NCBI GenBank assembly: GCA_020279385.1
Contig: GCA_020279385.1_4762.1
DNA length: 64,000 nucleotides
Source: a phage
Strand: one strand, 5' to 3'
The notes beneath the pieces were generated by a model. The model ran no database searches, had not been told where the DNA came from, and was given only the letters and a program-made list of their open reading frames with translations. A program made the position numbers and the translations under genes. Of the stretch, positions 28,791 to 32,376 are shown one piece after another. The number at the start of each line of letters is the position of its first letter. Positions within the stretch are counted from its first letter, which is position 1.

Positions 28791-28817
28791 ATCTGGGGCT
28801 TTATTTATGATTAACTC

Positions 28818-29414
28818 TTATTTGGTAGTACCGTCAATAAAATGTTTACGGCACACAGAGACATATTTATCCTCTGCACCAACTTCTATTTGAGCACCAT
28901 CGCGAATAACATTACCATCTTTATCTACGCGAAGGACCATAGTCGCTTTCTTGCCACAATGACAAATACCCTTCATTTCGACCAGTTTATCAGCAAATGC
29001 CATTAATGCCGCAGATCCTTCAAATAGATTGCCCTGAAAGTCAGTGCGAAGGCCATAGCACAGTACAGGGATATTTGCATCATCAACAAGCGCACACAAG
29101 CCTAAAACATGCTCTTTAGTCATAAATTGGGCTTCATCTACAAATACTGCATCTGGACGCCAGCGATCCGTTCTACGCTTACCTAGTGATTCACGATAAA
29201 CCAAGTCGAAAAGATCATCCGATTTAGTGAAGGTGATCGCTGGAGCACTTAGACCAATTCGGGAAACGACTTCACTTTCTGAATCTCGATTATCAATCGC
29301 TGGCTTAAGAATTAATACTCGCATATCACGTTCGGTATAGTTATAAGCACTTTGTAACAGAGAAGTTGATTTGCCAGCGTTCATAGATGCATAGTAGAAA
29401 TATAATTGCGCCAT
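28818..29414 (-). CDS. tk: Thymidine kinase
   Basis: P-loop YYASMNAGKST, VDEAQF, Zn-ribbon CHCG..C..H as in T4 Tk. Confidence 0.95.
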   Translation of the reverse strand: MAQLYFYYASMNAGKSTSLLQSAYNYTERDMRVLILKPAIDNRDSESEVVSRIGLSAPAITFTKSDDLFDLVYRESLGKRRTDRWRPDAVFVDEAQFMTKEHVLGLCALVDDANIPVLCYGLRTDFQGNLFEGSAALMAFADKLVEMKGICHCGKKATMVLRVDKDGNVIRDGAQIEVGAEDKYVSVCRKHFIDGTTK

Positions 29415-29707
29415 TAATTAATCTCCAAAAATCCAACAAGACCTAAACCGATATAAGTCCAGATACCAATAAAAAAGATGTTAATGCTCATGGCAAGGAT
29501 AAACCCTTTCAGAGTTTTGGGATACCCGACCCAATATTCCCGACCATCTTCTAACCGGATCAACTTATTTCCTTGCGAGTCCATATCAACCACAACATGT
29601 TTATTTCGAGATTGCAATAGATATTGTTTTACAATCTCTACACCCGCCATAATAACAATAACGAAAATAAAAGTCCACACAACAAGATTAATGATAGTCT
29701 CAAGCAT
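29414..29707 (-). CDS. Hypothetical membrane protein
   Basis: 97 aa, two hydrophobic helices. Confidence 0.45.
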   Translation of the reverse strand: MLETIINLVVWTFIFVIVIMAGVEIVKQYLLQSRNKHVVVDMDSQGNKLIRLEDGREYWVGYPKTLKGFILAMSINIFFIGIWTYIGLGLVGFLEIN

Positions 29708-29942
29708 TTTCTATCACCTCCACCCAATCAGGTGTTTCCTGAAAGACTCCTTCACCTTCATGATGGTCGCAACCTTTATTGCTGCAATACATCCACCAAT
29801 CCCACATTCCCCACGGTAAACGCTGCATATCGTCGTTACAGCAAGTGAAGATGATAGGCCAACCACATCTAACACATCGGCAGTTTTCCTTCATGTGAGC
29901 GGTATTAGACTTCTTCATAGATGACTCCAATATAATCGACAT
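29700..29942 (-). CDS. Hypothetical Cys-rich protein
   Basis: 80 aa with CRCVRCG...CC...C..C. Confidence 0.4.
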   Translation of the reverse strand: MSIILESSMKKSNTAHMKENCRCVRCGWPIIFTCCNDDMQRLPWGMWDWWMYCSNKGCDHHEGEGVFQETPDWVEVIENA

Positions 29943-30145
29943 TTACATTTAGGACAATGCGGTTCTTTAATATAATACCCGTCTGTCTTTGGAACACTAA
30001 CAGGAGCGGTTTTTATATTGTATTCAGTGAAACAACGAAAACAAGTTACGTTTTCTACAGACTGACGTTTCACCCAATCACCGGAATATAGATCATTTTT
30101 ATTTGTCATATTCAACCACCACAATGTTAATGTCTGGAGTAGCAA
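29915..30145 (-). CDS. Hypothetical Cys-rich protein
   Basis: 76 aa with CFRC...CPKCKC. Confidence 0.4.
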   Translation of the reverse strand: MLLQTLTLWWLNMTNKNDLYSGDWVKRQSVENVTCFRCFTEYNIKTAPVSVPKTDGYYIKEPHCPKCKCRLYWSHL

Positions 30146-30554
30146 TATTAATGATCTCTTCTACACATTCCCACTCAAGGCCACCGATACCGCAACCGAT
30201 TTTAGGAATATAGAAAGGCTGTATAGCACCTTCAAAAACATCATTGATAGTCTCAAATCCTTTCAGGATAGCACCATATTCAGCATTTGGACCCGGTCGG
30301 AATTGGGTATATAGATTCACCCCGCACCAGTTATAACCATTAACTTGATGCGTCCAGACACTAAACCCACCCAGCTTTTCTACCTTACCGCGAGAAGTTT
30401 GCTTGTCAATCTCTAACGCTTGCGGGAACTCTTTCGCGATCTTTGCAGCAATACCAGCACCCATAGTATGAAAACAATTACAACCATGAATTAAATGACC
30501 GTTTCCTTGTTTAAACAGGGCGATGAGATCGCCCTTTACAGTATCAATAATCAT
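30099..30554 (-). CDS. Macro-domain-like protein (putative ADP-ribose binding/processing)
   Basis: 151 aa; HGCNCFHTMGAGIAAKIAKEFP and IPKIGCGIGGLEWE blocks resembling macro domains. Confidence 0.6.
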   Translation of the reverse strand: MIIDTVKGDLIALFKQGNGHLIHGCNCFHTMGAGIAAKIAKEFPQALEIDKQTSRGKVEKLGGFSVWTHQVNGYNWCGVNLYTQFRPGPNAEYGAILKGFETINDVFEGAIQPFYIPKIGCGIGGLEWECVEEIINIATPDINIVVVEYDK

Positions 30555-30569
30555 AATATAAACCTCTCA

Positions 30570-30929
30570 TTAGTCACGGGAAGACAACCCAGCCATAAAA
30601 CGGCTTAACAGTGTGTCGCGATAAGCAAAGCATAATTGCTTATCAGGGGCAGTATCACAAAGGTTGCGTTTTGTTTTAGCAAAGCTGGCAATACTCAGAT
30701 CCCATGCTCGATTTTTTCGTTTTTCGTCTCGACCTTGTTTGTATGCTTCGTCAAGTTCGAGCGCGATAAAATCGCTACACATGTTATCATCATCACAGAA
30801 GGTTTTAATGATCTTTTTGTTGATCTCAAATCCTTTGTATTCGAACTTTGGATAAGGGCGCTCATTACTAGCAAGCGCACCAGCAGAGAACATCATAGCA
30901 ATCATAGCAATTATTGTCAACTTTTTCAT
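30570..30929 (-). CDS. Hypothetical secreted protein
   Basis: 119 aa, signal peptide MKKLTIIAMIAMMFSAGALA. Confidence 0.5.
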   Translation of the reverse strand: MKKLTIIAMIAMMFSAGALASNERPYPKFEYKGFEINKKIIKTFCDDDNMCSDFIALELDEAYKQGRDEKRKNRAWDLSIASFAKTKRNLCDTAPDKQLCFAYRDTLLSRFMAGLSSRD

Positions 30930-30936
30930 ATATTCC

Positions 30937-31527
30937 TCAATAGCGTTTAGTTTTAAGAATGCCTTTACTCTTTAGATGGTTAGCCTTTTTTAGTACGTCA
31001 TCAGCATAACCTAAACCGGCTTTATAGTTCCACCCAGCATTGTAAGAAGCTAGCGCGAGTCGGATATTACCGTTTCGAACATCCAGCCAGTATGCTAACT
31101 CATCCATCGCGTAGAATGCAGAAACCTCGCGATTCATGATAAAGTTGATAGTCTGGCGATCACTCATTTTAACACCGCGCTTTGCATTTTTCGCTTTCAC
31201 CGTTTTAAGGTAATTTTGAAATAATCCATAAGCATGATGATTTTTCTTTGGTGCTAAGTTTGCACCCGCGCTTGATTCTTGCCATGCGATACCCGCCAGG
31301 ATGTGACCTAAACCCTTTCCGTTATAGCGAATATTCGGATGGTACTTTTTCAACTTACCGCTTTTCTCGAATTGCTCGCCGTATTGATAGGCGAAATGTA
31401 AATTATCTAGTTGGTGTGCTGTAAAGTTGTCTATCGGCGCTTTTTTGATCGGTGCGCTAGTCGATGCGTGTGTAGCACCAACGGCTAGTGACAGACTCAA
31501 TAATATCGCTTTTAGAACTTTTAACAT
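30937..31527 (-). CDS. Secreted lytic-transglycosylase-like protein
   Basis: Signal peptide; AWQESSAG..GLFQ..YNAG motifs of SLT domain. Confidence 0.65.
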   Translation of the reverse strand: MLKVLKAILLSLSLAVGATHASTSAPIKKAPIDNFTAHQLDNLHFAYQYGEQFEKSGKLKKYHPNIRYNGKGLGHILAGIAWQESSAGANLAPKKNHHAYGLFQNYLKTVKAKNAKRGVKMSDRQTINFIMNREVSAFYAMDELAYWLDVRNGNIRLALASYNAGWNYKAGLGYADDVLKKANHLKSKGILKTKRY

Positions 31528-31613
31528 TAATTTCTCCTGTTTGGCTTAACTTTCTGATTCCATAATATAGCCAGATCACCAGAAAGTCAAGCATTATTTT
31601 TAACCAATTTCCA

Positions 31614-32036
31614 TTATTGGTCTACCTTCAAAACAACCGCCGACATTTTACCCGCCAGTCGTTTTGGATTCTCTATAATCATTCGGCAGCATAGACCGTG
31701 ATATGGCTTACCCTCTTCGATTAGATCTACTGTCATCCCGATCCACATGTTACCGTCAGTAATTTCTAATCGATTCGGTCGGTCTTCCATTTTCAGGAAG
31801 TCGAAGATCTCCGGCAAACGAGTTTCTATCTTATTGAATAGTTCCATTGTCTTATGTTCATCAATATGACGATCGGTTAGACGGTCGATCATATGCGGAC
31901 TAAAGCGAATGAAAATATACTCACCGTAACCATCATTCAAGCACTTTTCTTTGATCTGCGCATTGGTTTTGCGCATTTCGGTTTCGAAGAATCTACGCAG
32001 CTTACTACGGCGAACATGTACGTTAATTGTTTCCAT
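31614..32036 (-). CDS. regB: Endoribonuclease RegB
   Basis: METINVHVRRSKLRRFFE...NRLEITDGNMW..CRMIIENPKRLAGK matches T4 RegB; ATG 32036. Confidence 0.85.
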   Translation of the reverse strand: METINVHVRRSKLRRFFETEMRKTNAQIKEKCLNDGYGEYIFIRFSPHMIDRLTDRHIDEHKTMELFNKIETRLPEIFDFLKMEDRPNRLEITDGNMWIGMTVDLIEEGKPYHGLCCRMIIENPKRLAGKMSAVVLKVDQ

Positions 32037-32040
32037 TTTA

Positions 32041-32376
32041 TTATCCTTTCTTAAACAAATTGCGAATCCAGTATACAAACGGGATTTCTTTAAACTTGAA
32101 TTTCTCTATAGTTAATTCTTTAGTAGCAAAATGAATACCATAAGCATCATGTGTAACTATATGCCATTTTCTATAGTCCAAATGTGAACAACCGTCTGGA
32201 TCTAGGTTAATAATAGTTTCTCGCTCACTAGGATTATTTTTCCACAATTTTGTAATAGGATCGCACATAATTCGACCTAGCGTACCATGAATAATCTCAC
32301 AACGGTAAAGTTTTCCAGCAGTGAGATAGGCGCACCCGTCATAGTCGGTATAAACAAACACTTCTTTAACACTCAT
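32041..32376 (-). CDS. Paralog family D protein (GCSHL motif)
   Basis: 111 aa; DPDGCSHLDYRKW motif shared with next two ORFs; promoter 32408-32437. Confidence 0.5.
   Translation of the reverse strand: MSVKEVFVYTDYDGCAYLTAGKLYRCEIIHGTLGRIMCDPITKLWKNNPSERETIINLDPDGCSHLDYRKWHIVTHDAYGIHFATKELTIEKFKFKEIPFVYWIRNLFKKG

Follow-up and report, generated by a model that had tools for sequence, protein, structure and literature searches.

DarTG defence systems block phage DNA replication by ADP-ribosylation of DNA. The Streptomyces coelicolor macrodomain protein SCO6735 cleaves thymidine-ADP-ribose (T-ADPr) DNA and rescues DarT toxicity, its Q85A mutant being inactive, and human TARG1 also cleaves T-ADPr DNA (PMC9411070). 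The PhiKZ protein gp104 (AdfM) strips T-ADPr from oligonucleotides and protects chimalliviruses from DarTG2, with the N23A mutant as control when de-ADP-ribosylation was assayed (PMC13309987). T4 lacking adfA and adfN is still resistant to DarTG2, so a further factor was predicted (PMC11825919). According to a HIDEN-SEQ preprint, tk.4 is the one gene of T4 with a significant depletion on a host with DarTG2, where it becomes conditionally essential, whereas plain K-12 allows growth without it; a clean tk.4 knockout sensitises T4 to DarTG2; the gene is named adfM (anti-DarT factor Macrodomain) and the resemblance of its product to the DarG macrodomain of Mycobacterium tuberculosis is noted (10.1101/2025.11.20.689424). 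The present analysis concerns the tk.4 gene found in 64,000 nucleotides of phage DNA (GenBank assembly GCA_020279385.1, contig GCA_020279385.1_4762.1), a stretch called here the window. This gene likely encodes an orphan antitoxin-like ADP-ribosylglycohydrolase, which would erase the thymidine-ADP-ribose made by DarT2 from single-stranded phage DNA.

The protein of the window and T4 Tk.4 share 44% identity and 65% positives (E-value (E) 9e-45) over residues 1-150, and the order tk, three small open reading frames (ORFs), tk.4, vs, vs.1 and regB, on one strand, is common to T4, phage JSE and the window. By this full-length identity and this gene order, the window gene is both orthologous to and syntenic with T4 tk.4, renamed AdfM. 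The T4 protein has 155 residues and that of the window 151, and in both phages the gene has tk-proximal small ORFs on one side and vs on the other. The motifs HGCNCFHTMG, NLYTQ and P-x-IG-x-GIG are present in both proteins, including a Gln at the position where related enzymes have a Lys. The two differ in 56% of their residues, and the second glycine-rich loop reads GCGIGGLEW in the window and GAGIGKGNW in T4. The DNA-modification background of the window phage is also expected to differ from that of T4.

The window phage is a T4-like Krischvirus (RB49/JSE/Phi1-like). Megablast of positions 28800-32100 retrieves 59 phage records, 58 of which cover the full query at >95% identity, and all matches are Krischvirus-type T4-like phages, such as phiS (98.7% nucleotide identity), JSE (98.6%), Phi1 (98.2%) and RB49 (98.1%). 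The RefSeq note of JSE on the same gene is ‘tk.4, phosphatase; Tk.4; contains A1pp phosphatase motif’, and that of T4 tk.4 likewise mentions the A1pp phosphatase motif. Both the gene, which is annotated Tk.4 in near-identical genomes, and its anti-DarTG2 role, described for the T4 orthologue, are already known. The first-pass annotation, which was made from the sequence alone, had proposed a candidate DarTG counter-defence, and this proposal is supported by the DarTG2 phenotype of the T4 orthologue (10.1101/2025.11.20.689424). It had also placed a 151-residue ORF with two macro-domain-like blocks in the tk-regB region, without naming the minus strand. The ORF is confirmed and the blocks are exact, HGCNCFHTMGAGIAAKIAKEFP being residues 23-44 and IPKIGCGIGGLEWE residues 116-129 of the translation; the location is correct as well, tk (28818..29414) and regB both being confirmed by Pfam.

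By profile search and structure prediction, both named in the first pass, the tk.4 product is a macrodomain. Pfam PF01661 (Macro) matches residues 22-135 with 28.7 bits (gathering cut-off 22 bits; E 1.3e-6) over profile positions 1-118 of 118, and most homologues have a precomputed PF01661 match. The PHROG 335 profile is matched with an E of 1e-61. When the single sequence is compared with the PDB by phmmer, the M. tuberculosis DarG macrodomain (5m3i, E 4.8e-8) ranks first, ahead of BT1257, SCO6735 and TARG1, and a profile of 105 homologues retrieves BT1257 (E 1.6e-16), SCO6735 (4.2e-15), TARG1 (1.4e-14) and M. tuberculosis DarG (1.8e-13). The AlphaFold2 model made with the homologue alignment has a predicted local distance difference test score (pLDDT) of 97.4 and a predicted template modelling score (pTM) of 0.92. 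Its strands and helices alternate in the three-layer alpha/beta/alpha macro fold, with Foldseek template modelling (TM) scores of 0.7-0.84 to many solved macrodomains. In the PDB, Foldseek aligns it with TARG1 (probability 1.00, E 5.5e-11, TM 0.78-0.84, root mean square deviation (rmsd) 2.5-2.6, 28-29% identity) and with the DarG macrodomains of Thermus aquaticus and M. tuberculosis (probability 1.00, TM 0.77-0.80, the T. aquaticus value being 0.80); Poa1p, BT1257 and SCO6735 also reach a probability of 1.00. Among viral models the best match is ‘tk.4 [Acinetobacter phage 133]’, with a TMq of 0.90. A Pfam match to DUF7334 was dismissed, since it scores 13.8 bits against a threshold of 27.

Residue conservation was counted in the 105 homologues, and positions were compared in a MAFFT alignment with T4 Tk.4, PhiKZ gp104, M. 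tuberculosis DarG, TARG1, SCO6735 and BT1257 (Table 1). Two glycine-rich loops, MGAGIA and GCGIGG, align with the loops of TARG1, DarG and SCO6735 and are predicted to bind ADP-ribose. In the first loop, which aligns to MGAGIA of TARG1 and MGKGIA of DarG, M31, G34 and A36 do not vary among the homologues, and G32, A33 and I35 are each conserved in at least 90% of them. In the second loop, G120 and G122 are invariant, G125 is found in 102 of the 105 sequences, and G124 occupies the position of the catalytic Asp125 of TARG1. Asp50 is present in all 105 homologues, and the corresponding residue is a Tyr in DarG, SCO6735, BT1257 and PhiKZ AdfM. The column of Gln84 holds the catalytic Lys of DarG (K80), TARG1 (K84) and PhiKZ AdfM (K78). 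The NLYTQ segment aligns with NMIGQ of both SCO6735 and BT1257, and Gln84 corresponds to Gln85 of SCO6735. As SCO6735, a proven thymidine-ADPr DNA hydrolase, has Gln85 and needs it for activity, a Gln at the Lys position is, by analogy, compatible with the proposed function of a DNA eraser. The Gln in place of Lys in the active site is a minor mechanistic detail, on which the available text of the T4 HIDEN-SEQ report, which compares Tk.4 with DarG, appears to be silent.

In the proposed mechanism, a DarTG2 host would free the DarT2 toxin during infection, and DarT2 would ADP-ribosylate thymidines in single-stranded phage DNA and thereby block replication. Tk.4 would hold the ADP-ribose via the MGAGIA and GCGIGG loops and hydrolyse the bond between thymidine and ribose, restoring replicable DNA. 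Its active site is of the Asn26/Gln84 type of SCO6735 and not of the Asn/Lys type of DarG.

SCO6735 (5E3B) and BT1257 (Bacteroides, 2FG1/2AFC) are stand-alone proteins, as Tk.4 is, and have His, Asn and Gln at the positions of H23, N26 and Q84. Both marks of this type, the Gln at the Lys position of TARG1 and DarG and the Asn in the region of the first loop, are therefore found in Tk.4. However, the identity is about 24%, and a bacterial DNA-damage response is to be compared with a phage early gene. Tk.4 also lacks the mobile loop of SCO6735, which is about five residues longer and bears Lys89 and Lys93, and has Ala33 in place of Lys34. Lys34 and the mobile Lys loop are important for DNA activity and positioning in SCO6735 (PMC9411070). 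Because the longer Lys-bearing loop and Lys34 are absent, the Tk.4 clade is, by alignment, its own branch of the ‘ALC1-like’ class of TARG1, DarG and SCO6735 and a strict member of none of these groups. In this clade, Gln84 is as in SCO6735, the MGAG loop resembles that of TARG1 and the GGL-x-W loop that of DarG, and Asp50 is specific to the clade. It is possible, though doubtful, that the clade is mechanistically distinct from DarG and not a captured copy of it, perhaps with an independent origin and a water-activating mechanism. Its eraser activity could then extend beyond the thymidine adduct of DarT2 to other ADP-ribose adducts of defence transferases, and so be broader than is suggested by the DarTG2 phenotype of T4, the only one reported.

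PhiKZ gp104 (Morgan et al., Cell Rep 2026, PMC13309987) is likewise a phage macrodomain that stands alone and belongs to the DarG-like class; its N23 corresponds to N26 of the window protein. The two proteins share 26% identity over 129 residues, and gp104 differs from Tk.4 by keeping K78 at the position of Gln84, by an insertion before the second glycine-rich loop, and by its import into the phage nucleus and late expression (PMC13309987).

Fold, Asn and G-x-G-x-GGL-(D/E)-WE loop are common to Tk.4 and DarG (5M31/5M3E from T. aquaticus, 5M3I from M. tuberculosis), which according to the literature also hydrolyses T-ADPr DNA. DarG profiles recognise the macrodomain half in Tk.4 (NCBIfam NF048014, E 7.9e-13, positions 2-141 of 338; PADLOC DarG, E 3.9e-14, positions 3-141 of 329). 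Unlike DarG, Tk.4 has no C-terminal DarT-binding domain, positions 142-338 of NF048014 being unmatched and the score of 48.4 bits standing against a cut-off of 250; no darT is adjacent, and Lys80 of the T. aquaticus protein is replaced by Gln84. Pfam matches and annotation show no ADP-ribosyltransferase or darT gene among the neighbours of tk.4, which are vs, vs.1, regB, two zinc-binding proteins and tk, and a phage-borne toxin-antitoxin pair of such a transferase and the macrodomain was ruled out for this reason. No second macrodomain gene was found in the window by tblastn. As the DarT-binding domain, a neighbouring darT and the catalytic Lys are all missing, window Tk.4 is not, on these sequence features, a DarG antitoxin.

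The lack of the DarT-binding domain and of an adjacent toxin gene also indicates that Tk.4 probably erases the mark and does not sequester DarT. A mainly non-catalytic neutralisation of DarT2, with Tk.4 bound to the toxin or covering the modified DNA, is highly improbable, and so is a role of Tk.4 as a mere reader of ADP-ribose. Such a function would be in line with the absence of the DarG catalytic Lys, and the catalytically dead forms of SCO6735 (Q85A), DarG (K80A) and TARG1 (K84A) keep their inhibition of DarT in vitro through interaction (PMC9411070), while AdfB of phage ICP1 blocks DarT by direct binding (PMC11481870). However, the DarT-binding domain of DarG is the part that Tk.4 does not have, Asn26 and Gln84 are conserved as expected of an active site, and catalysis by SCO6735 requires the Gln found there (PMC9411070). 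ICP1 AdfB was also considered as a macrodomain precedent and rejected, as it is a DarT-binding antitoxin mimic that is likened to the DarG C-terminal domain (PMC11481870).

Human TARG1/OARD1 (4J5R/4J5S) is the top Foldseek match; it has the same MGAGIA loop as Tk.4 and resembles it in size. Its Lys84/Asp125 dyad is replaced by Gln84/Gly124 in Tk.4, and TARG1 has a Ser at the position of Asn26. As the Lys/Asp dyad is missing, Tk.4 is not, by its predicted active-site residues, of the TARG1 type. TARG1 is a protein Glu/Asp-ADPr hydrolase and T4-like phages encode ADP-ribosyltransferases, and both facts would favour a Tk.4 that erases ADP-ribosylation of proteins or RNA, either the phage's own Alt, ModA and ModB marks or those of host defence ADP-ribosyltransferases. 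SCO6735, moreover, also de-modifies a protein substrate (PMC9411070). This substrate is nevertheless very unlikely, since T4 tk.4 is dispensable on K-12 and was a hit only on DarTG2 (10.1101/2025.11.20.689424). The dyad absent from Tk.4 is the one that serves ester-linked protein substrates, and no ADP-ribosyltransferase gene lies beside tk.4. As the marks of T4 Alt and Mod are arginine-linked and the T4 tk.4 phenotype is seen only on DarTG2, Tk.4 is unlikely to erase Alt/Mod marks of the phage itself; macrodomains of TARG1/MacroD specificity are not known to cleave Arg-linked ADP-ribose. The self-regulatory hydrolase suggested in the first pass finds no support.

Yeast Poa1p, an ADP-ribose-1''-phosphate phosphatase, is among the top folds (E 1.6e-9, TM 0.65-0.71). 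This similarity, the ‘phosphatase’ label of PHROG 335, the A1pp phosphatase motif of the T4 and JSE RefSeq notes and the name ‘O-acetyl-ADP-ribose deacetylase’ given to JGI homologues would agree with a Tk.4 working on small ADP-ribose derivatives and not on DNA adducts, these being ADP-ribose-1''-phosphate, O-acetyl-ADP-ribose or the gcADPR/His-ADPR signals of Thoeris. A comparative-genomics review also considers that phage macrodomains may prefer soluble ADP-ribose derivatives (PMC9503650). This activity seems an unlikely main function, because the phosphatase and deacetylase labels were passed on with the name of the domain and do not come from experiments, and the fit of Poa1p is poorer (rmsd 4.7 Å, against 2.5-3.2 Å for TARG1 and DarG). 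The sole phenotype reported for the orthologue is specific to DarTG2 (10.1101/2025.11.20.689424). Small-molecule and DNA activities would not be mutually exclusive, by analogy with TARG1, which has several. Also considered as a case of phage macrodomain anti-defence was a 2026 preprint that treats Thoeris II in N4-like Pseudomonas phages; it was rejected, as the macrodomain belongs to the host effector ThsA.

Several points weigh against Tk.4 of the window being an eraser of DarT2 marks on DNA. Removal of ADP-ribose from DNA by the T4 protein is given only as ‘it seems likely’ in a preprint that is not yet peer reviewed (10.1101/2025.11.20.689424), and a literature search found no DarTG2 test of RB49 or any Krischvirus. 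The identity is 44% to T4 Tk.4 and 26% to the characterised PhiKZ AdfM. The catalytic Lys of DarG is absent, Lys34 of SCO6735 is A33, and its long Lys loop is a short loop; because these residues are all absent, substrate preference is unreadable from the Tk.4 sequence. Enzymes of the TARG1 class have further substrates in Glu/Asp-ADPr proteins and O-acetyl-ADP-ribose. Erasure of thymidine-ADP-ribose from phage DNA is still the preferred function, and we infer, by analogy, that the 44%-identical window allele acts as T4 Tk.4 does and that the mechanism is enzymatic. A literature search on ‘AdfM’ returned mostly unrelated matches to journal DOI strings and, on phages, nothing further than the papers cited above.

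Table 1. Features of the tk.4 locus in the window, with residue numbers of the tk.4 translation.
Feature	Coordinates	Strand	Basis and remarks
tk.4 coding sequence, 151 residues + stop	30099..30554	minus	ORF listing, ATG start; stand-alone macrodomain, orthologue of T4 Tk.4/AdfM
Shine-Dalgarno sequence GAGAGG	30563..30568	minus	8 nucleotides 5’ of the tk.4 ATG; read from sequence
Asn26 codon (HGCNC)	30477..30479	minus	105/105; corresponds to DarG N22 and PhiKZ AdfM N23 (MAFFT)
M31-G-A-G-I-A36, first Gly-rich (putative diphosphate-binding) loop	30447..30464	minus	conservation and MAFFT
Gln84 codon (NLYTQ)	30303..30305	minus	Gln in 104/105; MAFFT and HMMER profile alignments agree
G120-C-G-I-G-G125, second Gly-rich loop	30180..30197	minus	conservation and MAFFT
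11-nucleotide overlap of tk.4 stop and next-gene ATG (30109-30107)	30099..30109	minus	sequence GAATATGACAAATAA
small Cys-rich protein	29915-30109	minus	one of the pair matching PF23895 and PF23903; starts 11 nucleotides inside the tk.4 end
small Cys-rich protein	29700-29942	minus	other of the pair matching PF23895 (E 5.7e-34) and PF23903 (E 1.8e-23)
vs.1, 196 residues	30937-31527	minus	SLT lytic transglycosylase domain, 25.8 bits, threshold 21.3
regB, 154 residues as mechanical ORF, TTG start	31614-32078	minus	Pfam REGB_T4 from residue 19

The TAA stop codon of vs, at 30570-30572, lies directly before the Shine-Dalgarno sequence of tk.4. At the other end, the coding sequence annotated 3’ of tk.4 in JSE begins at the same site as the overlap ATG of the window, and the 11-nucleotide overlap suggests that tk.4 and the downstream zinc-binding small gene (29915..30109) are probably translationally coupled. 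The GC content of tk.4 is 41%, and that of the window 40%. The Pfam domains found in the neighbours are TK, two ‘Phage zinc binding’ domains, SLT in vs.1 and REGB_T4. The two zinc-binding small genes, in the interval between tk and tk.4, are located where T4 has tk.1-tk.3 and are called ‘hypothetical’ in JSE. The vs.1 product is called ‘hypothetical protein’ in the annotation of both T4 and JSE; its N-terminus (MLKVLKAILLSLSLAVGATHA) is hydrophobic and signal-like. For regB, JSE uses an internal ATG (METINVHV..., 141 residues, equivalent to 32036 in the window), and the start of the REGB_T4 match at residue 19 of the long ORF is consistent with this shorter annotated start.

A sigma-70-like match at 30920-30892 (minus strand), in the first codons of vs, has TTGACA, a spacer of 17 nucleotides, TATGAT and a TG extension (11/12). 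It is the best promoter-like match in the 5.5 kb scanned and lies within the vs coding sequence, about 330 nucleotides upstream of tk.4; a transcript from it could span tk.4 without full-length vs. A terminator-like hairpin at 30605-30591 (minus strand), at the 3’ end of vs, is formed by AGCCGTTTTATGGCT followed by GGGTTGTCTT, about 35 nucleotides before the tk.4 start codon; it is a consensus match only, with a weak T-tract. The promoter and terminator scans were set aside as evidence, their matches being close to chance density (25 promoter-like matches against 18.3 expected, 6 terminator-like matches against 3.6).

By tblastn, homologues of Tk.4 are found in 2,732 phage records out of 50,697, with a query coverage of 80% or more in 2,438 of these matches. 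The phages that carry them infect Escherichia, Klebsiella, Salmonella, Pseudomonas, Vibrio, Acinetobacter and other hosts. This distribution agrees with a published account in which, of all ADPr-processing domains, macrodomains are those most widely spread among large phages (PMC9503650). Between the Krischvirus Tk.4 and the macrodomain of phages of about 135-143 kb, such as MaxTheCat and Escherichia phage EduardKellenberger/Bas59, the identity is 68%, and T4 Tk.4 has 39% identity to that of Bas59. The 68% identity to Bas59-type phages, against 44% to T4 Tk.4, suggests that the allele was exchanged between Krischvirus and an unrelated phage lineage, with its position between tk and vs retained. 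A match of 67.5% is found in MG065690, ‘Campylobacter phage A135’, an odd host label.

Some viral relatives are longer by 90-150 residues, such as Q6J2P1 (tk.4 of Acinetobacter phage 133, 245 residues), A0A0N9S0X2 (SUSP2, 260 residues) and A0A481YV05 (an SNF2 protein of Marseillevirus), and in these the macrodomain appears to be fused to another domain. The homologue of Acinetobacter phage B09_Aci05 adjoins a nicotinamide phosphoribosyltransferase gene, which hints that the same putative eraser domain is variously wired into NAD/ADPr metabolism. In a 2026 preprint, the tk.4 mRNA of phage T2 is listed as a target of the host small RNA ArcZ in Hfq RIL-seq, and the protein was detected in infected cells (10.64898/2026.06.19.733364), which hints at a possible post-transcriptional control of tk.4. 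The same source calls tk.4 a ‘putative thymidine kinase’ and has no functional information; this label is an annotation error.

Phage erasers of DNA ADP-ribosylation help set which DarTG strains can be infected, which matters for predicting host range and for choosing phages for therapy. At the tk.4 locus, the main value of the analysis is one of annotation, with ‘phosphatase’ or ‘hypothetical protein’ giving way to a probable anti-DarT2 ADP-ribosylglycohydrolase of the AdfM family.

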